DNA of 64,000 bases from Fibrobacter succinogenes (GTDB taxonomy: Bacteria; Fibrobacterota; Fibrobacteria; Fibrobacterales; Fibrobacteraceae). The stretch lies in NCBI RefSeq assembly GCF_902771595.1, contig NZ_CACXXH010000001.1, one strand, 5' to 3'. The notes under the pieces were generated by a model. It did not search any database, had not been told where the DNA came from, and saw only the letters and a list, made by a program, of their open reading frames with translations. The position numbers and the translations under genes were made by a program. Positions 3,455 through 55,246 of this stretch are shown one piece after another (the first letter of the stretch is position 1; each line of letters starts with the position of its first letter).

Positions 3455-3487
3455 GGTGCCTTCGGCACAGTTCTGCGGCTTTCAGCC

Positions 3488-3515
3488 TAGTTACGAGTTC
3501 CGAGTTACTAGGTCC
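3488..3515 (+). repeat. Heptad-periodic tandem repeat, 4 units (TAGTTAC GAGTTCC GAGTTAC TAGGTCC)
   Basis: Read directly from the spacer between the TM2 gene and rdgB. (T/G)AG recurs every 7 nt. The array starts 34 nt after the TM2 stop and follows a small GTGCC-TTCG-GCAC hairpin. Confidence 0.7.
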
Positions 3516-3584
3516 AGAGTAAAACATCCCGCAACCTAAAATTCTAGTAACTAAAAAAGAATAACAATCCCGTAACACTAAATT

Positions 3585-20000: not shown

Positions 20001-21043
20001 GCACTCGCCTTCGAAATGTCCTCGACAGGCAAGCCCTGGATTCGCGACTGCGCATTATACCGCGAAATGCGGGCCGTACCCGTATCGACCACGTAGGCAA
20101 TACCCGGAATCGTAAGGGAAGTTTCCGCAATGTTCGTCGCAAGCACCACGCGGGTCTTTTCGGTCCGCCTGAAAATGCGGCGCTGTTCGTCCGGGCTCAT
20201 GCGCCCGTACAGCGGGAGGATATCGAACGTCGCGGAATCCAGTTCGTGCGCCAACTCGCCCGCCAAATCCTGAATGTCGCGTTCCGTAGGCAAAAAGCAA
20301 AGCAAATGGTCGCGGTGGCGCGTTTCCAAATCGAGAATCGCATCACGCGCCTCGTCAAGCAAGCCGGAATCGCCCTTGCCGCTGGTGTCGAGCGCCGCCC
20401 GCGCCGCCAAGCCGCCGTCAAAGAAATACTCCACATCCACCGGGAACGTGCGGCCTTCGGCCTCCATCACGCAGCTGTTGTCGTAAAATTCCTCGAAGAG
20501 TTTCGCATCCAGCGTCGCCGACGCCACAATCAGCTTGAAATCCGGGCGTTCGTGCAGCACCGTCTTGAAAATGCCGAGCAAAATGTCAATGTTCAGCGAG
20601 CGTTCATGCGCTTCGTCAATCACGATGGCCGAATACTGGCGGAACAGCCTATCTCGACGGAATTCCTGCAACAGGATGCCATCCGTCATCACCTTGATGG
20701 GAGCGTCGCTCTGGCCCTGTTCCCAAAAACGGATTTTGGTGCTGACTAGCGTTTCGTCCTTCAGTTCTTCGCGCAGGCGGTCTGCAATCGAAATCGCCGC
20801 CAAACGCCGCGGTTCCGTCACACCGATTTTGAAAGGCCGCGCATTCTCGCCACCATCGACAGCGCCCGCATTCTTACCAGTGAACCACTCCAGCAAAAAC
20901 TTCGGCAACTGCGTCGACTTGCCAGAACCCGTGTCCGCCTTGACAATCACCACCTGGTGTTTTTCGAGCAGCTCAAAAAACTCTTCCCGATGTTCAACGA
21001 CAGGAAGCTCTGGGTAAGCAATTTTCAAGTTCTCGTAAGACAT
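17048..21043 (-). CDS. hrpA: ATP-dependent RNA helicase HrpA (DEAH-box)
   Basis: Motifs TGSGKSTQLPKFLLE, DEAHERS and QRTGRAGR, plus a long HA2/OB and C-terminal extension. I chose the ATG at 21043 (MSYENLKIAYPELPV); the track start reads through an AT-rich repeat. Confidence 0.9.
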   Translation of the reverse strand: MSYENLKIAYPELPVVEHREEFFELLEKHQVVIVKADTGSGKSTQLPKFLLEWFTGKNAGAVDGGENARPFKIGVTEPRRLAAISIADRLREELKDETLVSTKIRFWEQGQSDAPIKVMTDGILLQEFRRDRLFRQYSAIVIDEAHERSLNIDILLGIFKTVLHERPDFKLIVASATLDAKLFEEFYDNSCVMEAEGRTFPVDVEYFFDGGLAARAALDTSGKGDSGLLDEARDAILDLETRHRDHLLCFLPTERDIQDLAGELAHELDSATFDILPLYGRMSPDEQRRIFRRTEKTRVVLATNIAETSLTIPGIAYVVDTGTARISRYNAQSRIQGLPVEDISKASARQRTGRAGRVKPGVCIRLYSPEDFEKRDEFTEPEIRRSNLANVVLQLRSLGLELENFPFLQSPPHSAFRGAYKTLFELGALTADNSSGHVTKLGREMTRLPMDVALSAVLLRARDAGVLQPALIVCSALSIQDPRVVPSEEPERTRIRQLHRKFAGHKSDFITFICMWNAFCAEWDGKTWNKLRKFCDKNSLHFLRCREWIDLYEQFGRILDVKFENRVCPLDSFHRDNLHIALLSGFLGGIARRDIENGCYRLVSGRETHVFPGSDLYGKSAEWMFSAEVRETSRIFLNKGAEIKPEWILQVAEPFCTRRWFAPTWNQERGFVEAVEEVSFRGLVISRGHRVDYARVNPEECAEIFWREAVVLGQMARPFSFMTHNERVVEDLHALEARKRQFGLAPSEDALVDYYTRIAHNVNSIKTLKDYVREHTDQFLKFDAKFWLDQSETGVSYTDSGFSNRAFDALAKGDKKKNAAKTPEPTLGGSIEQFRFEGLNGASRMVMGELVFDAMRDCDGITLDFPYDLLPDTTPATLALSIHQWREWMEESVIREMPKTAKKLLEGRRTFIDDAFCDKLKENPHKAPLLLLYEVFAGFKQLDCDIPTVTPEKENHLRLHMKVFKPGFPEKFSVELNPEWGSYRLFLAVRPVVVTFGIDFSLEDMRFGWRLGDSALMAPQESAFWQCFRKRVEGRAQFNTENRAQSNTGNAAQSDAGDRAQPDADSSLIVDRLNMLETGGLYSDGFKTALKSWVLKSLTADKLDANRCVRFSGLEYSRGKKIRDFRNLAASTRSEDEEIRLALVRATYESALFGAESFVRFWSMLKEFSVAMRQGADHARDMLAASSFKSKLTQILSLYSPNRDTTLFERLAVLSEIIGAHLAADDKQKPLVPGDKPARPELSVRDLREKFRPFLKARFMKDHELKNARDALSKMERMQQDDSEYPELYLQASAMLEDFEILKFKRKGDDAEEVVEEDSLAKLKGRFGRLR

Positions 21044-21120
21044 TTGACAATGGATAATTGATAATGGATAATGGATAATAGATGATGTAAAATTATCAAT
21101 CATCAATTATCAATCATCAA
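21044..21120. repeat. 77-nt spacer made entirely of 11 in-phase heptads (TTGACAA TGGATAA TTGATAA TGGATAA TGGATAA TAGATGA TGTAAAA TTATCAA TCATCAA TTATCAA TCATCAA)
   Basis: Read directly. It includes a perfect 14-nt tandem duplication ATTATCAATCATCA x2 (21092-21119). The left (GATAA) and right (TTATC) halves are partly complementary, so an imperfect AU-rich hairpin is possible. Confidence 0.75.
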
Positions 21121-21261
21121 TCACTCTTTAATATGCCCGCACTTGTCGCAGGTGAGTTTATAGCTGTTGTCCGGGTCAACGACCATCACGCCGTCGCATT
21201 CCGGCACTTCGCACGGGAGTTCGCCCGGCATCACTTCACGGTAAGTCTTTTTTTCTTCCAT
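21121..21261 (-). CDS. Small zinc-ribbon protein (46 aa), not in the ORF track
   Basis: Hand translation: MEEKKTYREVMPGELPCEVPECDGVMVVDPDNSYKLTCDKCGHIKE*. It has CX4C ... CX2C. The codon usage (GC-rich third positions) resembles neighbouring genes. It sits between the FISUMP gene and hrpA on the same strand. Confidence 0.45.
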   Translation of the reverse strand: MEEKKTYREVMPGELPCEVPECDGVMVVDPDNSYKLTCDKCGHIKE

Positions 21262-27220: not shown

Positions 27221-27238
27221 CTACAGGCTCTACAGGCT
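27221..27238. repeat. 9-nt perfect tandem duplication CTACAGGCT x2
   Basis: Read directly. It abuts the TAG of the hppA-derived fragment. Confidence 0.7.
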
Positions 27239-27456
27239 AGAAGAACATGTCTCCGAAGCGGACGATGACGCCGGCGAACACGACACTCACCATGGTCATG
27301 AGCTTGATGAGGATGTTGAGCGAGGGGCCGGCCCGTGGTCATCACGAACTTGTGGCCCGCATCGATTATCGCACGGATAGAACGCATGTCGGTATCCGAA
27401 ATGCGCTTGTCATCAGTCAGGAGCGTACCGTCAAGGTCTGTGAACAGAATTTTCAT
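27237..27456 (-). pseudogene. Chimeric relic: the first 44 codons of a Cof-type HAD gene fused (frame-shifted) to the last 32 codons plus stop of an hppA gene
   Basis: 27325-27456 matches codons 1-44 of 25417..26250 (MKILFTDLDGTLLTDDKRISDTDMRSIRAIIDAGHKFVMTTGRP). 27237-27332 matches the hppA 3' end and encodes AGPSLNILIKLMTMVSVVFAGVIVRFGDMFF*, identical to hppA. The junction is at about 27318-27336, inside the shared GAGCG..GCCG microhomology. The 82-aa track ORF (27208..27456) reads the hppA part out of frame. Confidence 0.8.
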
Positions 27457-27555: not shown

Positions 27556-29247
27556 TTAGTCCTTGACGCAGCGGACGGAGAATCCGAACGCTTTAGTATC
27601 GCCGCCATCAGTCGACAGATACGCAATATCATTGTTATTACCCACACTCATATTGTACACTTCTTGATTTTCCTCTGTGGAACTCCAAAAGCCTGCGACG
27701 GTCGCCTCATGATCATCGAAGCAAGGATCCCCCCAGGAACCAAACATGTATTCCCCAGGAAGCGCCGAGAAGCCGGACTCATTCGTACCAGTGCCTCCCA
27801 AGTACCAGCCAAATGCAGACTTGAGCGCCGAACCGGTCTTTGAATTCCCACCGACGGCAGTCAATAGAGTTTCAAATTCCGTTTTGCTCGGCAAGTGCCA
27901 TCCATCCGGGCAAACGCCCTGAATATTCCCCGACGGCAGGGAGCACGTTTTCCCATAGCCGCATTCCTCCTCAGTTTTGCCAACCGCATCCGCCCACCAA
28001 TAAAGACGGCCGTATTTCTCGCAAAATTTCGTAGAATCGATAAAGCAGTGGCTAGAGGCCGTTTCAAAATTGAGATTTTCCGCCATCCATACCTGGTCTC
28101 CAATTTTCACGGTCTTGTACGTTCGACCGTCGCGGGAATCTGTCAACTCGCCATATTCAACATTCGGGTTGAACGGACTCTCGCTAGACAGGGATGACTG
28201 TTTTTCACCCTGGAGACAACGGACAGAATAAGCATTTTGCTTGGACACTCGCCACCAAGACTCATACGTTTCACTATAGTACAAACGCATCACGTACGTT
28301 TCATCGTCGTTGAACTCCGACGCATTCCAAAAATCAACCACAACGCCCACACCGCCATATTTGCCATTGTCCATACCGCCAGCAGGTAATGCAGAAAAAC
28401 CAGAAATATTCGTATCATCATAAGTTTGCACATAGTCAAAATATGAACCGACTACAAGAAGAGGATTCCAAACGGCACTAGACTTAAGCGCAACACCAGC
28501 GTAAGCTTTGTTTGAAACAGCTGTAGTCAACAAGGTATCCCATTCGGCCCAGCGTGGCAAGTGCCACCCGCTCGGGCAAGCATCCACAGCAGCATACCAA
28601 GTGTAGAGCCGGCCAAACTTGGAGCAGCTACTTGCGGAATCTCCATAGCAATAACTATTTGCCGATTCGTAGTTCAGATTCTCCGCCATCCACACCTGAT
28701 TGCCAATTTTCACGGTCCTGTAGGTCTGGCCATCGCGGGAATCGGTCAGTTCACCATACGAAATTTTCGGGTTAAAAATACTTACACTACTGCTAGACTC
28801 ACTCGTCTCGCTTGAACTTGACACCGGTGTAACGCTGGAAGAAGAATTTGCAGAACTGCTGCTTGATTTTGCACTGCTGCTCGTCATGGCGGCCTCGGAG
28901 CCGCCATCTCCCTTACTGCTACTGGACACACTTGTCTCGCCATCGCTCGACTGCGGTGTGACGCTAGAGGAAGACCTGCTAGAGGAACTACTTTTCTCCT
29001 TAACCCATTTTTCATTCACGCACACATAGGTGGCAGAATTTTCCACCACATATGCCTCCATCCCCTCCCGTATGTCGTTACAATCGGGAAGTTCACCAAA
29101 AGTATTCACTTCCAAGGAGAGGGGGGATCCAAATATATTTTCTGTTAAGGGATCAGTTGCGTTTTTGTCGCCACAGGCAGAAAATGCGACAAGGGCAATT
29201 GTCGCCAAAAACGGCATCAGGATTTTGGACGGAAATTCCTTCGCCAT
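27556..29247 (-). CDS. FISUMP-domain lipoprotein (2 domains) with a Ser-rich linker
   Basis: I chose the ATG at 29247, preceded by AGGAGG (MAKEFPSKILMPFLATIALVAFSAC); the track start at 29286 is TTG. There are two units with WMAENLN(Y/F), CP(S/D)GWHLP and SVRC(L/V). Confidence 0.85.
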   Translation of the reverse strand: MAKEFPSKILMPFLATIALVAFSACGDKNATDPLTENIFGSPLSLEVNTFGELPDCNDIREGMEAYVVENSATYVCVNEKWVKEKSSSSSRSSSSVTPQSSDGETSVSSSSKGDGGSEAAMTSSSAKSSSSSANSSSSVTPVSSSSETSESSSSVSIFNPKISYGELTDSRDGQTYRTVKIGNQVWMAENLNYESANSYCYGDSASSCSKFGRLYTWYAAVDACPSGWHLPRWAEWDTLLTTAVSNKAYAGVALKSSAVWNPLLVVGSYFDYVQTYDDTNISGFSALPAGGMDNGKYGGVGVVVDFWNASEFNDDETYVMRLYYSETYESWWRVSKQNAYSVRCLQGEKQSSLSSESPFNPNVEYGELTDSRDGRTYKTVKIGDQVWMAENLNFETASSHCFIDSTKFCEKYGRLYWWADAVGKTEEECGYGKTCSLPSGNIQGVCPDGWHLPSKTEFETLLTAVGGNSKTGSALKSAFGWYLGGTGTNESGFSALPGEYMFGSWGDPCFDDHEATVAGFWSSTEENQEVYNMSVGNNNDIAYLSTDGGDTKAFGFSVRCVKD

Positions 29248-29329
29248 AGTGACCTCCTGTACATAAACTATACTTTTTGATTTCAAACGTCAACAGGCCG
29301 ATTACAGCTTTTACCCAGAAATCGGCCAG

Positions 29330-29371
29330 TAACTAATAACTAATAACCAATGACTATTGACTAATGACCAT
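29330..29371 (-). repeat. Heptad-periodic tandem repeat, 6 units. Plus strand: TAACTAA TAACTAA TAACCAA TGACTAT TGACTAA TGACCAT. Sense strand: ATGGTCA TTAGTCA ATAGTCA TTGGTTA TTAGTTA TTAGTTA
   Basis: Read directly. It starts at the last base of the hppA stop codon and fills the proximal part of the hppA-FISUMP spacer. Confidence 0.75.
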
Positions 29372-31740
29372 TAAAAAAACATATCGCCAAAGCGGACGAT
29401 GACGCCGGCAAACACGACGCTCACCATGGTCATGAGCTTGATGAGGATGTTGAGCGAAGGCCCGGCGGTATCCTTGAACGGGTCGCCCACGGTATCGCCC
29501 ACCACGGCAGCCTTGTGCGTATCGGAGCCCTTGCCACCGTAGTTGCCCTTCTCAATATACTTCTTCGCATTGTCCCAGGCACCGCCCGCGTTATTGAGCA
29601 TCGTCGCAAGCGCAAAGCCGCACGCAAGTCCGCCCGCCAACAGGCCGAACACGCCCGCAACACCCATGAACAGGCCCACCAGCACGGGCACCACCACAGC
29701 AAGCACCGAAGGCAAAATCATTTCGCGCTGGGCACCCGTCGTCGAGATTTCCACACAACGCGCATAATCGGGTTCACCCGTCCCTTCCATGATTCCGGGA
29801 ATCTCGCGGAACTGGCGACGCACTTCTTCCACCATCGCGCTGGCGGCTCGACCCACCGCCTTGATGGTGAGCGCGCAGAACACGAACGTCATCATCGCAC
29901 CGATGAACAGGCCCCCAAGCAACATGGGGTTCATCAAATTCAAGTTATAGATGTGCATGAAGTCCACATAGTTCACCTTGCTTGCGACCAACCCGAGCAG
30001 GTCCCCGCTCTCAGAAATCGCACGCGTACCGCCGTCCAAGAACTTCACGCCGGCAATACCCGAAAGCGCATTCGCAAGGTCGTTCGCACCGTTCGCGAAC
30101 GCCACTGAACCCACCTTCCACACGCCCTCCGCAGAGGATGCGAGGTGCCCGAGCCAAATCTTCACTTCTTCTACGTAAGATGCGAGAAGCGCCATCGCGG
30201 TAAGGGCGGCAGAACCGATCGCGAATCCCTTGCCCGTCGCAGCCGTGGTATTCCCGAGCATGTCGAGTTCATCGGTACGGGCGCGCACTTCGGGATCGAG
30301 ACCAGCCATTTCGGCGTTACCGCCCGCATTGTCCGCAATCGGCCCGAACGCATCGGTCGCGAGCGTGATGCCGAGCGTACTCAGCATGCCCACCGCGGCA
30401 AAGCCCACGCCGTAGAGGCCCATCGCCATGTCGCTAAATCCGCCAGCACACCCGAACGCAGAAATAATGCCGATAACAATCGTCACCACCGGAAGCCCCG
30501 TGGAGAACATGCCGACGGAAATGCCGTCGATAATCGTCGTCGCGGCCCCGAGCTTGGCCTGGCCCGCGATACCGCGCGTGGGCTTGTACGCATCGGAAGT
30601 ATAGTGCTCGGTAAACTGCCCGATAAGGATACCCGCAGCAAGGCCCGAAAGCACCGAGCCGAAAATGCCCATTGAAATGAAGTCAAACTTCACCAGCACG
30701 AGAAGCGCCACGAGGATAAGCACCGAAGACCCGAGCGTTCCCGTAAGGAGAGAACGCAGCAGAGACTTTGTGTCGGCGGTTTCTTTCGTACGTACAGCGA
30801 AGATGCCCGCGAGCGAAAGGAGTATTCCGATTGCAGCCACCACCATCGGGGCAATCACGAGCTTGATACCGCCCATCGGGAGGGCCGCCCCGAGAGCCGC
30901 CGTCGAGAGAATGGAACCGCAGTAAGATTCGTAAAGGTCGGCGCCCATCCCGGCGACGTCCCCCACGTTGTCACCGACGTTATCCGCAATGGTCGCCGGG
31001 TTGCGCGGGTCATCCTCGGGGATGCCCGCCTCGACCTTGCCCACAAGGTCGGCGCCGACATCGGCCGCCTTCGTGTAGATGCCTCCACCCACGCGGGCAA
31101 AGAGAGCCTGCAGGGAAGCGCCCATGCCGAAGGTAAGCATGGTCGTGGTGATTTCCACCATCTTCGCATGCGCCCATTCCGCATTGTTCACCATGTCGGC
31201 AGTCCACGCCCCGAGAGAGAGCTTGGATGCCACATCGGCGCCAAAGTTCCACACGTTGTTATCGTAAATGTAGTTGAGCAAGAAGAACCAAGCCGAAATA
31301 TCCAGGAGGCCAAAGCCCACCACCACAAGGCCCATCACGGCTCCGCTACGGAACGCGATGACAAGCCCGCGGTTCAAACTGCTGATGGCACCGTTCGCCG
31401 TGCGGGAACTCGCGTACGTCGCCGTCTTCATGCCCAAAAAGCCGCAAAGCCCGCTGAAGAAGCCGCCCGTAAGGAAGGCTACCGGCACGAACGGGTTCTG
31501 GATGCCCATGACGGCAAGCACCACGAATATAAGGAAAAGCACCGCAAAAACGATGGAAACTGTCTTGTATTGCCGCCGGAGGTAGGCAAACGCCCCTACG
31601 CGCACAAAATGCGCAATCGCCTTCATTTTCTCATTGCCGTCGGGCTGCCGCTTCATGAACCTGTAAAAGAAAAACGCCATGGCGAGCGCAAACAACGCTG
31701 CAACCGGGACCAGGAACCAATAAGCTGGAATAGTAAGCAT
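29371..31740 (-). CDS. hppA: Membrane-bound pyrophosphate-energised cation pump (H+/Na+-PPase)
   Basis: 789 aa and polytopic. Canonical PPase motifs are GGGIYTKAADVGADLVGKVE, DNVGDNVGD and DTVGDPFKDTAGPSLN. Confidence 0.92.
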   Translation of the reverse strand: MLTIPAYWFLVPVAALFALAMAFFFYRFMKRQPDGNEKMKAIAHFVRVGAFAYLRRQYKTVSIVFAVLFLIFVVLAVMGIQNPFVPVAFLTGGFFSGLCGFLGMKTATYASSRTANGAISSLNRGLVIAFRSGAVMGLVVVGFGLLDISAWFFLLNYIYDNNVWNFGADVASKLSLGAWTADMVNNAEWAHAKMVEITTTMLTFGMGASLQALFARVGGGIYTKAADVGADLVGKVEAGIPEDDPRNPATIADNVGDNVGDVAGMGADLYESYCGSILSTAALGAALPMGGIKLVIAPMVVAAIGILLSLAGIFAVRTKETADTKSLLRSLLTGTLGSSVLILVALLVLVKFDFISMGIFGSVLSGLAAGILIGQFTEHYTSDAYKPTRGIAGQAKLGAATTIIDGISVGMFSTGLPVVTIVIGIISAFGCAGGFSDMAMGLYGVGFAAVGMLSTLGITLATDAFGPIADNAGGNAEMAGLDPEVRARTDELDMLGNTTAATGKGFAIGSAALTAMALLASYVEEVKIWLGHLASSAEGVWKVGSVAFANGANDLANALSGIAGVKFLDGGTRAISESGDLLGLVASKVNYVDFMHIYNLNLMNPMLLGGLFIGAMMTFVFCALTIKAVGRAASAMVEEVRRQFREIPGIMEGTGEPDYARCVEISTTGAQREMILPSVLAVVVPVLVGLFMGVAGVFGLLAGGLACGFALATMLNNAGGAWDNAKKYIEKGNYGGKGSDTHKAAVVGDTVGDPFKDTAGPSLNILIKLMTMVSVVFAGVIVRFGDMFF

Positions 31741-46419: not shown

Positions 46420-47883
46420 TTATTTTCTCGCGAAAACAATAAAGTTTCCATCAACATAGGCCACAGCCCATTTTGTGGATACGCGGAGGCTCTCCAAAAG
46501 CCTGTCCCAGCGGGCATAAAAACGCAGCGGAAAGACCGCTCGGTCGATTCCCAGGGAATCCGCATCGGAGAGGAACAGCGCCGGATCTTCGGAGTAGCGC
46601 ATGTACCGCTCGAAGAATTCCGCCGTCTTCAGGATGAAGCGCCCATCTATATATGTAGAATCCGCGGGGTTCACGAACGCGAGATAGCCGCCGGCACGGT
46701 CATCGTTGAACAGCCGGCCCTGATGCGGGTGCTCCTTCATCCAGGCGGCGGCGGAAACGGGCACGCGCTGGTAGGCGACCCAGGAATCATAAGCGGAAAC
46801 GGAACGCCCCCAGAAGCCGAGGAGGAAAGCAAGGATTACTATAGAAATTATTTTGCAAATCTTAGAACTGAAAAAATGTGGGATGTGGAATGTGGAATGT
46901 GAAATGAAAGATGCGGGATGATATATAAAGGCGAAAAGGAATATCGGAAGGAACAATACGAAATTCCTTTCGGCCGCAAGCGCCATCACCGAGATTACAA
47001 ACAACGTAACAAACACTACAAAGTTTTCGCGGCTGCGGACCAGTTTAACGACCGCATTCGCCGCCCCGAAAACAGCGAGCGCAATCATCAGCGCGCTTGC
47101 AAGGACATTCTCGCCGGCAAGGAGAATGGTAAGCGGGCTACGGTTCTCGGCGATGCCGCTCGCGAACGCCGCCGCCGAGGGGGAAATACCGAGCAGCCGG
47201 TCCAGAAGCCCAAACGGGTACAGGAAAATCGACACGCCGTCCCTGTGTAAGAAGGGCATCGCGAACAGGAGCAGCACAAACAGCGAGGGGAAAGCCACAT
47301 CATATGCCTGCAAGTGCCCGGCCCGTTTCATGCGTTCCGCGACGACGGGCAGCACGCACAACGCTGCGAACAGCGGGCCCAGAATATAGAGCCCCTGGAT
47401 ACGGCACCACACCCACTGCAAGGCAAGTACCGCAAGCGCAAGCGCATAAACTTTCAGGTCGGCCCGGCGCTCAAGACGCGCAAGCAGCCACGGAAGTACA
47501 TTCCAATACACCCCGAGGAACAGGAGCGAAAAGAGCACGGGGCGCATTTCGAACTGGAAGCGGAATACGAACAGGAGTACGCCCGCAAGTGCGACCGGGA
47601 GCGGGTTGCGGAAAAAGTCGATACGCCTCCCCCGCATAAAAAGCGCAAACACGAGGCCCCATAACACCGCCTTGAAAATAACAAGCAGGGGCGCGCCCCC
47701 GATGCAATAGACCGCGTACACCACCTGCTGGAAGAACTCGTGGATATTCACCATGCCCGCGCGTGACGGGCTCCAGGTCACCACCCACTCCCGCGCACAG
47801 GCGAGATGCCACCATATGTCGGTATCCGTCAGGGGGAACAGCGCAAAAAGCAGCGCCAGGAGCGAGACCGCAATCCAGTTCAT
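46420..47883 (-). CDS. Polytopic membrane protein, possibly a GT-C-fold glycosyltransferase, with a C-terminal soluble domain
   Basis: 487 aa with about 10+ TM segments. There is an acidic motif in the first loop (PLTDTDIWWHLA). The start overlaps the stop of the upstream TIGR02171-like gene (ATGA). The functional call is inference only. Confidence 0.65.
   Translation of the reverse strand: MNWIAVSLLALLFALFPLTDTDIWWHLACAREWVVTWSPSRAGMVNIHEFFQQVVYAVYCIGGAPLLVIFKAVLWGLVFALFMRGRRIDFFRNPLPVALAGVLLFVFRFQFEMRPVLFSLLFLGVYWNVLPWLLARLERRADLKVYALALAVLALQWVWCRIQGLYILGPLFAALCVLPVVAERMKRAGHLQAYDVAFPSLFVLLLFAMPFLHRDGVSIFLYPFGLLDRLLGISPSAAAFASGIAENRSPLTILLAGENVLASALMIALAVFGAANAVVKLVRSRENFVVFVTLFVISVMALAAERNFVLFLPIFLFAFIYHPASFISHSTFHIPHFFSSKICKIISIVILAFLLGFWGRSVSAYDSWVAYQRVPVSAAAWMKEHPHQGRLFNDDRAGGYLAFVNPADSTYIDGRFILKTAEFFERYMRYSEDPALFLSDADSLGIDRAVFPLRFYARWDRLLESLRVSTKWAVAYVDGNFIVFARK
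46876..46924 (-). repeat. Intragenic heptad-periodic repeat, 7 units. Plus strand: ATGTGGG ATGTGGA ATGTGGA ATGTGAA ATGAAAG ATGCGGG ATGATAT
   Basis: Read directly. It lies inside the CDS 46420..47883 and encodes ...IYHPASFISHSTFHIPHFFSS... Confidence 0.7.
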
Positions 47884-55193: not shown

Positions 55194-55208
55194 TCTCTAT
55201 ATAAATTC

Positions 55209-55229
55209 TAGTAACTATTAACTAAGAAC
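55209..55229 (-). repeat. Heptad-periodic repeat, 3 units. Plus strand: TAGTAAC TATTAAC TAAGAAC. Sense strand: TTAGTTA ATAGTTA CTAGAAT
   Basis: Read directly. It lies in the 53-nt spacer between the Wzi-like gene and the U32 gene, after a GCGGC-GAA-GCCGC hairpin. AAATTCTAGTAACTA (55203-55217) is identical to 3539-3553. Confidence 0.65.
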
Positions 55230-55246
55230 TGCGGCGAAGCCGCTTC

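Follow-up and report, generated by a model that had tools for sequence, protein, structure and literature searches.

Heptanucleotide tandem arrays at Fibrobacter gene junctions as probable parts of palindromic mosaic elements

Introduction

What are the short runs of 7-nt units that stand behind the stop codons of some Fibrobacter succinogenes genes, and are they read as sites in the RNA? The question arises from a 64,000-nucleotide stretch of contig NZ_CACXXH010000001.1 (RefSeq assembly GCF_902771595.1), here called the window, in which three spacers between co-directional genes carry such arrays. One follows hppA (ATGGTCA TTAGTCA ATAGTCA TTGGTTA TTAGTTA TTAGTTA; 29330..29371, minus strand), its first base being the A of the hppA TAA; one follows a gene for a Wzi-like protein (TTAGTTA ATAGTTA CTAGAAT; 55203..55229, minus strand); and one follows a TM2 gene (CTAGTTA CGAGTTC CGAGTTA CTAGGTC; 3487..3515, plus strand). 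The original prediction, made from the sequence alone, took them for arrays of an N(T/G)AGTTA unit, all oriented with transcription, and proposed that a multimeric RNA-binding or processing factor acts between cistrons by reading a (U/G)AG triplet every 7 nt. All three arrays are in the sequence exactly as it gave them. We find that they are probably copies or fragments of one family, NNAGTTN, in a genus-wide class of noncoding palindromic mosaic elements built on tandem heptamers.

Arrays with a period of seven

Genome-wide scans covered the 3.46-Mb assembly (148 contigs; 13.6% intergenic) and used exact cores and motif-free self-similarity; a scan for a 4-mer core with one mismatch had too high a background. 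Tandem Repeats Finder (TRF; score ≥40) returns 93 arrays at period 7, compared with 0, 6, and 15 at periods 8, 10, and 11. Motif-free self-similarity over four units, with ≥85% of positions matching, gives at period 7 45 arrays between genes and 6 within them, and 0 to 2 intergenic arrays at each of the other periods from 4 to 14; at ≥70% there are 188 period-7 arrays (170 intergenic, 18 genic) and at most 6 at periods 8, 10, 11, and 13. Exact AGTT and AACT cores recur at period 7 over at least three units 28 and 34 times, respectively, with approximately none in first-order Markov simulations and 0 to 2 at periods 6, 8, and 9. The arrays are beyond chance, and the original prediction, which was to be given up if no genome-wide enrichment appeared, comes through on this point.

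The unit is another matter. At least four unit families are present, with 67 AGTT, 54 ATGTG, 28 TGAT, and 6 TCGTCT arrays plus others, and N(T/G)AGTTA is only one of them. Sister families have units such as AATGTGG, TGATAAT, and TCTTTCG, and two non-AGTT families lack a regularly spaced TAG. The (U/G)AG triplet proposed as the common core is thus not general; given several unit families, the shared feature is the 7-nt period.

Nor does the orientation of the focal arrays extend to the genome. Solo AGTT arrays in co-directional spacers are split between 16 sense and 19 antisense (p = 0.74), so that finding three of three in the sense direction was a sampling accident; paired AGTT arms inevitably add to both orientations. 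Placement is far from random: arrays are enriched in co-directional spacers and depleted in divergent ones (129, 17, and 18 arrays across the spacer types, where spacer length predicts 100, 22, and 41; p = 1e-5). In co-directional spacers the median array lies 22 nt past a stop codon and 45 nt ahead of the next start, and 47 of the 129 there either overlap the upstream gene's called end or start no more than 5 nt from it.

Anatomy of complete elements

Arms come in two complementary kinds, G/T-type and A/C-type, and their order is fixed. Among adjacent pairs of the same family the G/T-type arm comes first and the A/C-type arm second (14 AGTT, 15 ATGTG, and 2 TGAT pairs), and none is reversed. 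A reverse-complement partner lies within 250 nt of 49 arrays, as compared with 7 in a composition-preserving control; the alignment score threshold for partners (26) is strict, and the paired fraction is a lower bound. All 48 family-typed arms with a partner keep to the same order, with the partner downstream of G/T-type arms and upstream of A/C-type arms. Such pairs fold into long stems in which each heptad commonly leaves one base unpaired.

Alignment of about 60 AGTT arms reveals a modular element with recurring GC hairpins, a junction, and an apex palindrome. The run (NNAGTTN)n is often preceded by a GC hairpin of 5 bp whose loop has 3 nt (GCACCTGCGGTGC, GCGGCTACGCCGC, GCGCCTTCGGCGC, and others), and it is followed by the junction ACTAGAATTT, an apex that is often close to ATCAAGAAGCTTCTTGAT, the junction TCTAGTAACT, and (..AACT..)n. 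A GC hairpin of 4 to 7 bp with a loop of 3 to 5 nt adjoins 13 of 62 AGTT arrays but only 11 of 304 control positions; the earlier remark that a small GC hairpin and CAGTTCT precede two of the three focal arrays had therefore picked up a true family trait. The junction 15-mer AAATTCTAGTAACTA, with up to two mismatches, has 31 copies in the genome as compared with 3 for its control. In having many dispersed intergenic copies, common modules, and imperfect palindromes, these sequences resemble repetitive extragenic palindromic (REP) sequences, bacterial interspersed mosaic elements (BIMEs), and transposable elements of the miniature inverted-repeat type (MITEs).

The three focal arrays can be placed within this scheme. 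The TM2-Ham1 spacer reads as one small, degenerate palindromic element with a 5' arm of four units and a 3' arm of one or two. Two small GC hairpin modules (GTGCC-TTC-GGCAC and GGCT-TTC-AGCC; 3456..3487, plus strand), with one AGTTCTG unit between them, begin just past the TM2 stop codon; the G/T-type arm follows (TAGTTAC GAGTTCC GAGTTAC TAGGTCC; 3488..3515, plus strand), and then the junction with a short A/C-type arm, AAATTCTAGTAACTA (3539..3553, plus strand), which is complementary to AGTTACTAG at 3503-3511. The same 15-mer is found, identical, on the plus strand at 55203-55217. The Wzi-like array appears to be the left half of an AGTT-family element, cut off before the apex: a GC hairpin module (GCGGC-TTC-GCCGC; 55231..55243, minus strand), 3 nt past the Wzi-like stop codon and directly 5' of the array, and then the truncated half at 55203..55230 (minus strand), with three units (AGTTCTT AGTTAAT AGTTACT) and the junction AGAATTT. 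The hppA array has the look of a solo 5'-type arm, G/T-type, with six units of the TGGTCA/TAGTCA/TAGTTA subtype of the AGTT family and no complementary arm nearby. It runs from 29371 down to 29330, without a gap after the hppA stop codon.

PF05635 genes between complementary arms

Some elements enclose a gene. The sole gene of the genome for a PF05635 protein (23S rRNA intervening-sequence protein, Avd-like; C30:23755-24220, locus L001:1440-1900) lies in a spacer between two co-directional genes and between inverted arms of the AGTT family, and its reading frame extends into the 3' arm. One to four PF05635 genes are present in 42 of 61 genomes of the genus, and each of the 30 loci that we fetched, the one just described included, has a G-rich heptad array 5' of the gene and its complement 3'. 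The arms at these loci belong to at least 12 unit families, including AGTT, GACGAGA, and the TGGTCA/TAGTCA subtype found after hppA; a near-identical arm of the hppA type (GTGGTCATTAGTCAGTAGTCAATAGTCATTAGTT) stands 5' of a PF05635 gene in another species (L050). When the 5' flank is scored for complementarity against the 3' flank, the median is 29 within a locus and 15 between mismatched loci. By comparison, none of the 2845 called genes of the F. succinogenes genome is bracketed by inverted arms of the same family, and six have any array at both ends.

PF05635 protein clusters track the genomic site. At one site the arm units vary by species (GTGGTTA, GTAGGAA, GACGAGA) upstream of one and the same downstream gene, which we take to be a candidate lolC/E-like gene, and the two arms always match each other. 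This covariation at the level of whole arrays argues that arm pairing is maintained. Genomes with many AGTT arrays make up 16 of the 42 PF05635-positive genomes and 1 of the 19 negative ones (p = 0.012, without phylogenetic correction).

PF05635 has been described as resembling Avd, the accessory protein of diversity-generating retroelements (PMC10053308). The F. succinogenes PF05635 protein has a weak bAvd match, and RNase III is encoded in the genome. The arrangement of an open reading frame (ORF) within complementary, stem-capable flanks, as in intervening-sequence-type cassettes with PF05635, is seen at the cassette loci but not at the three focal arrays; all of the cassettes examined lie between protein-coding genes and none in a 23S rRNA gene. 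Among the papers listed in our searches, we found no description that links PF05635 or the intervening sequence protein to heptamer repeats.

Turnover between strains and species

The window has near-identical counterparts in metagenomes of the bovine rumen, in keeping with a rumen Fibrobacter. Three independent metagenomes (X6, X8, and X12) have contigs in which the array after hppA is short by exactly one unit (7 nt, at 29330), with 0 to 2 other differences in flanks of about 270 to 560 nt. Run X12 also lacks 2 nt of the Wzi-like array, at 55211, and the TM2 arm at 3488-3515 is unchanged in runs X6, X8, and X12.

Differences between species are much larger. Among hppA orthologues with 75 to 84% DNA identity, the array is missing after the stop codon in all five congeneric species with a recovered 3' end (loci L003, L005, L009, L010, and L011); the genes downstream of hppA differ in the congeners, however, so that absence here is weaker evidence than that from the other two spacers, TM2-Ham1 and Wzi-like-U32 (WziL-U32), which are syntenic across the genus. 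At the TM2-Ham1 junction, three species have a TAATG overlap, six have 7 to 26 nt, and the remaining species have other heptad families, such as TTAGTTA/TAGTCAA, GTGGTTA, GAGTTRT, AGGTTTT, and GACGAGA. At the WziL-U32 junction the genes overlap (TGATG or similar) or are 2 to 5 nt apart in seven loci from six species; the same GCGGCTTCGCCGC hairpin and an AGTT array are present in one congener (G012), and other species have other families, some as solo A/C-type arms. Where filled and empty orthologous sites are compared, there is no obvious duplication beyond the stop codon. The conservation that a regulatory site would call for is thus not seen: at orthologous spacers of congeners the arrays are missing or swapped for unrelated heptad families, and from these empty or differently filled spacers it follows that single arrays do not qualify as conserved regulatory sites. 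The junctions between genes are hot spots, with repeated filling.

Each species has its own dominant heptad family. The number of four-unit AGTT arrays per genome ranges from 0 to 177 across the 61 congeners; the genome with 177 (G037) can be set beside one with 73 period-7 TTGA arrays and no AGTT (G014). G012 has mostly AGTTATG/AGTTGTG, which is the arm unit of its own PF05635 gene (L040).

Two further loci deserve a description. The WziL-U32 spacer of genome G007 (L099) is 245 nt long and is a mosaic of at least five heptad families (GACGARA, AGGTNAC, CCTAACY, ACTAACCACT, and CTTCCTA) with GC hairpins. A (TTAGGGA)x3 array lies about 200 nt past the stop codon of the longest ORF in L012, from a genome (G020) of another genus in the same order; heptad arrays are therefore not restricted to this genus.

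Other features of the window

TRF also picks up period-7 arrays built of other units, at 21044-21123 and 46875-46906. The first (21044..21123, minus strand) is a complete palindromic element of the TGAT/ATCA heptad family that takes up the entire spacer separating two co-directional genes. Folded as 21030-21135, it has z = -2.8 and one unpaired base per 7 nt in its upper stem, and metagenome contigs break at it. The second (46875..46906) is an AATGTGG-family array of 4.6 units that is in frame within a long ORF (46420-47883, minus strand) and is unchanged in four rumen strains. This hydrophobic ORF of 488 amino acids has no Pfam match, and the array is read in it as ...SHSTFHIPHFF...; it may be one gene into which an array was inserted, or two genes.

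As for the genes flanking the focal arrays, Pfam bears out two of the identities first assigned, hppA (PF03030, H+-PPase) and TM2 (PF05154), and gives no match for the Wzi-like protein. The gene downstream of hppA bears a Fib_succ_major domain. Between the hppA array and the start region of that gene lies a hairpin, GGCCGATT...AATCGGCC (29294..29329, minus strand), which is unique rather than dispersed: a sequence search found no matches to it elsewhere, whereas the hppA-array part of the query had dozens. Rfam, searched over the whole window at gathering thresholds, gives no match.

We also considered known signals. Intrinsic terminators are rejected, as the hairpins beside the arrays precede AGUU heptads, not a U-tract; a terminator scan of this region places sites only inside the 3' coding end of hppA and farther downstream, with none at the hppA array. 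A terminator-like hairpin, ATCGTCCGC TTTGGCGAT followed by ATGTTTTTTT, is seen in the last hppA codons (29374-29400, minus strand) and runs into the TAA next to the array. G-quadruplexes are likewise rejected, since units such as TAGTTAC, TGGTCA, and GAGTTCC have no GGG tract.

The hppA region has a second peculiarity. A 95-nt copy of the hppA 3' end at 27238-27332 (within 27236-27456, minus strand) is 91% identical to 29372-29466, and the differences that we inspected in its last codons are synonymous. The copy is joined in frame to an N-terminal fragment of an apparent HAD-type hydrolase ORF, and homology between it and the true 3' end of hppA breaks off precisely at the stop codon, the point at which the heptad array starts. 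The two copies are approximately 2.1 kb apart; the array, the hairpin, the lipoprotein gene with Fib_succ_major, and the HAD-like fragment all lie in this interval, which has the appearance of an inserted or rearranged segment with direct repeats on either side. Within the lipoprotein gene (27556-29247, minus strand), parts of 28700-28976 match many sites in this genome and in congeners at 75 to 98% identity, with matching query stretches at positions 1-77 and 126-293; these repeated matches probably reflect a Ser-rich linker and conserved domain edges of a large family of paralogous lipoproteins.

Discussion

A complete element, as we read it, consists of an outer GC hairpin (often present), a G/T-type arm, the junction ACTAGAATTT, an apex, and a complementary A/C-type arm, where the apex is either a short palindrome (approximately ATCAAGAAGCTTCTTGAT) or a PF05635 gene. 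Such elements settle at gene junctions, mainly co-directional ones, often flush with the stop codon or providing it; their length shifts by slippage of whole units, and they turn over fast between species. In two-armed copies the transcript or the DNA may fold into a long imperfect stem, commonly interrupted at every seventh base, and by analogy to REP elements and to the stems that 23S rRNA intervening sequences form, this could be an RNase III, stability, or insulation structure. Processing between cistrons, as originally suggested, survives only in this form, with the long stems of paired arms as possible RNase III substrates. The elements probably have no role beyond structure, or are simply tolerated junk; solo arms like that of hppA are most likely decaying or nascent remnants without sequence-specific function.

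Several observations weigh against this reading or limit its reach. The hppA spacer has an unexceptional fold (z = -0.8), and with neither a partner arm nor an exceptional fold the structural mechanism is inapplicable to the hppA array as it stands; many arms scored as solo do show weak partners by inspection, and most arrays are stable among strains that are approximately 99% identical. Mobility of the elements is suggested by their shared modules, and no transposase, target-site duplication, or clean excision turned up, although no transposase search and no systematic search for duplications were made. The ATGTG and TGAT families, abundant in the genome, are absent around all 30 PF05635 genes examined. 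Gene calls come from a home-made dicodon caller with start trimming, and the intergenic and orientation counts carry some error. The RNA evidence consists of assembled metatranscriptome contigs, which break at repeats and may contain DNA. One contig spans 29168-29365, which includes most of the hppA array, and is continuous with the downstream gene, which suggests read-through from the array into that gene, with DNA contamination possible; contigs that end in or at the array (29365 and 29374) reflect assembler behavior at repeats, not RNA ends.

A bolder version of the proposal, which we regard as possible but doubtful, has the arrays as terminal arms in a family of selfish or mobile cassettes built around the PF05635 gene. 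Gene-less hairpins and solo arms, the three focal arrays among them, would then be MITE-like derivatives or debris, and the PF05635 protein or RNase III would act on the heptad helix. The tests of this idea were confined to this genus. Should it hold generally, the heptamer excess in cyanobacteria (short tandemly repeated repetitive sequences; STRR), Xanthomonas, Beggiatoaceae, Bacteroidetes, and Fibrobacter would have a mechanistic origin.

Three other explanations have to be weighed. The original one, sites for an oligomeric RNA-binding protein (TRAP-like, S1, Csp, or CsrA) that reads (U/G)AG or AGUU every 7 nt and regulates translation or processing between cistrons, has several attractions: the period is strict and the core conserved, the arrays lie in transcribed co-directional spacers near stops and starts, and (TCAGTTA)n in one congener corresponds to the opposite strand of the TAACTGA repeats of other bacteria. 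Proteins of the Avd-like family may bind nucleic acid. The elements are tied to a gene of that family (PMC10053308), and a binding-protein site of this kind has been proposed for the TAACTGA repeats (PMC4679880). Even so, we think it highly improbable. There is no strand preference, at least four unrelated unit families share the period and the architecture, the arms form complementary pairs, and the arrays are absent or replaced at orthologous spacers, with unit families that vary by species. The lack of orientation bias and the absence from orthologous spacers are two of the three outcomes that were to count against the prediction. For TRAP itself the triplet spacing is 4 nt, not 2 to 3 nt, there are 3 to 6 units rather than 9 to 11, and a search of the genome for TRAP (PF02081) gives no match, although the control genome, B. 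subtilis, does match. Plain simple-sequence repeats (SSRs), arising by replication slippage in place and without element identity or function, are just as hard to sustain as a full account. Slippage explains the changes in length and is seen directly in the whole-unit deletion at 29330 in three metagenomes; unit numbers differ between loci and species, and heptameric SSRs are reported to be over-represented in many bacteria (PMC4692102). What slippage alone leaves unaccounted for is the exclusivity of period 7, the recurrence of the junction 15-mer, GC hairpins, and apex palindrome at dozens of loci, the fixed order of complementary inverted arms, and the association with PF05635 at all 30 loci.

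A translational role, with the G/T/A-rich arm as an all-frame stop cassette or insulator that uncouples cistrons and excludes ribosomes from the spacer or stem, is unlikely, if somewhat less so. Arrays crowd the ends of upstream genes, as the counts within 5 nt show, at many loci the array opens with the stop codon as its first triplet, the stop-capable G/T-type arm is always 5' on both strands, and elements take the place of overlapping TAATG and TGATG junctions. But the original expectation that a 7-nt period places TAG or TAA in all three frames holds for the 55203 array only; the hppA array has stops in two frames and the TM2 array in one. The consensus units AATGTGG and TCTTTCG contain no stop codon, and one array of the AATGTGG type is read through in ORF 46420-47883; A/C-type arms also stand alone right after stop codons in congeners, and many species have no spacer at all at the same junctions. 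What survives is a possible tolerance filter, in keeping with a G/T/A-type arm that is always first and often provides the stop codon. Under the proposal of palindromic mosaic elements, solo arms would be tolerated if the G/T/A-rich arm quickly ends stray translation, and with the fixed arm order a ribosome coming from either strand would reach a stop-capable arm first, which may explain why arrays are tolerated flush with stop codons. This reasoning fails for some families.

Heptamer repeats are an old puzzle without an established mechanism, and the Fibrobacter version is unusually orderly. It turns a descriptive oddity into testable questions, such as whether the stem is an RNase III substrate and whether an Avd-like protein binds or propagates heptad helices. 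On the practical side, the arrays break short-read assemblies at gene junctions, are liable to be misread as regulatory sites, and flag junctions at which operon structure differs by species, from TAATG overlaps to spacers of 130 to 245 nt.

Comparison with known systems

We found no published account of heptanucleotide repeats in Fibrobacter. Intergenic heptanucleotide tandem repeats as a class are familiar from other bacteria, and the Fibrobacter arrays have their features: head-to-tail 7-nt units over-represented relative to other non-triplet periods, a mostly noncoding location that is favored between aligned ORFs and rare between divergent ones, unit-number variation between strains, and absence at orthologous sites. 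Tandem heptanucleotides (STRR) in a cyanobacterium, reportedly described by Mazel et al. in 1990, are cited, as reference 39, in PMC4692102, as is work from 2007 in which heptameric repeats are over-represented in many bacteria; we rely here on that paper's citations of both.

The closest relatives are perhaps the TAACTGA direct repeats, which are intergenic in Beggiatoaceae, Cyanobacteria, and some Bacteroidetes (MacGregor 2015, PMC4679880). Both consist of 7-nt tandem units, mainly intergenic and near starts or stops; both have a patchy phylogeny, variable copy number, and absence from orthologous spacers of close relatives; and the unit is nearly the same, the Fibrobacter A/C-type arm being (T/G)AACT(A/C)(G/A). 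They differ in that the BOGUAY genome has a single type of unit, which mostly keeps to one orientation and lies just upstream of starts, and one set of "indirect repeats," whereas Fibrobacter, in a different phylum, has several unit families, no orientation bias, frequent inverted pairing, GC hairpin modules, and the PF05635 link. The G-rich heptamers GGGAATC of Xanthomonas and GGGGA(C/T)T of Nostoc (Rehm et al. 2015, PMC4692102) are likewise over-represented among long SSRs and spread genome-wide in noncoding DNA; they too are favored between aligned ORFs and under-represented between divergent ones, lie near stops and starts, are transcribed, and vary in unit number. Those repeats have G-tracts that form G-quadruplexes and prefer four units; the AGTT family has no G-tracts, and its organizing principle is the complementarity of arms in a hairpin, not the quadruplex.

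The REP/BIME sequences and MITEs of Proteobacteria resemble the Fibrobacter elements as short, dispersed, imperfectly palindromic intergenic repeats that combine a few modules in mosaics, sit in transcribed spacers of co-directional genes, and are lineage specific and fast evolving. The Fibrobacter arms, in contrast, are periodic heptamer arrays rather than a unique palindrome of 20 to 40 nt, and no REP-associated tyrosine transposase (RAYT) or other transposase (none having been searched for), terminal inverted repeat, or target-site duplication was identified. The 23S rRNA intervening sequences with a PF05635 (S23p/IVP) ORF share with the cassettes a gene inside complementary flanks able to form a long stem; the Fibrobacter cassettes lie between protein-coding genes, their stems are made of tandem heptamers, and RNase III excision is only putative. 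The TRAP sites of B. subtilis likewise have regularly spaced UAG/GAG triplets in an mRNA leader or spacer, with spacers of 2 to 3 nt and 9 to 11 units as compared with 4 nt and 3 to 6 units in Fibrobacter, which has neither a TRAP gene nor a strand preference and has sister families without the triplet.

The class to which the arrays belong is thus already known, and their location preferences and variability agree with published descriptions; the Fibrobacter arrays are a version of the intergenic heptamer repeats exemplified by STRR, TAACTGA, and GGGAATC. New are the phylum, the complementary arms in fixed order with hairpin modules, and the complete association with PF05635, at 30 loci, with co-varying units.

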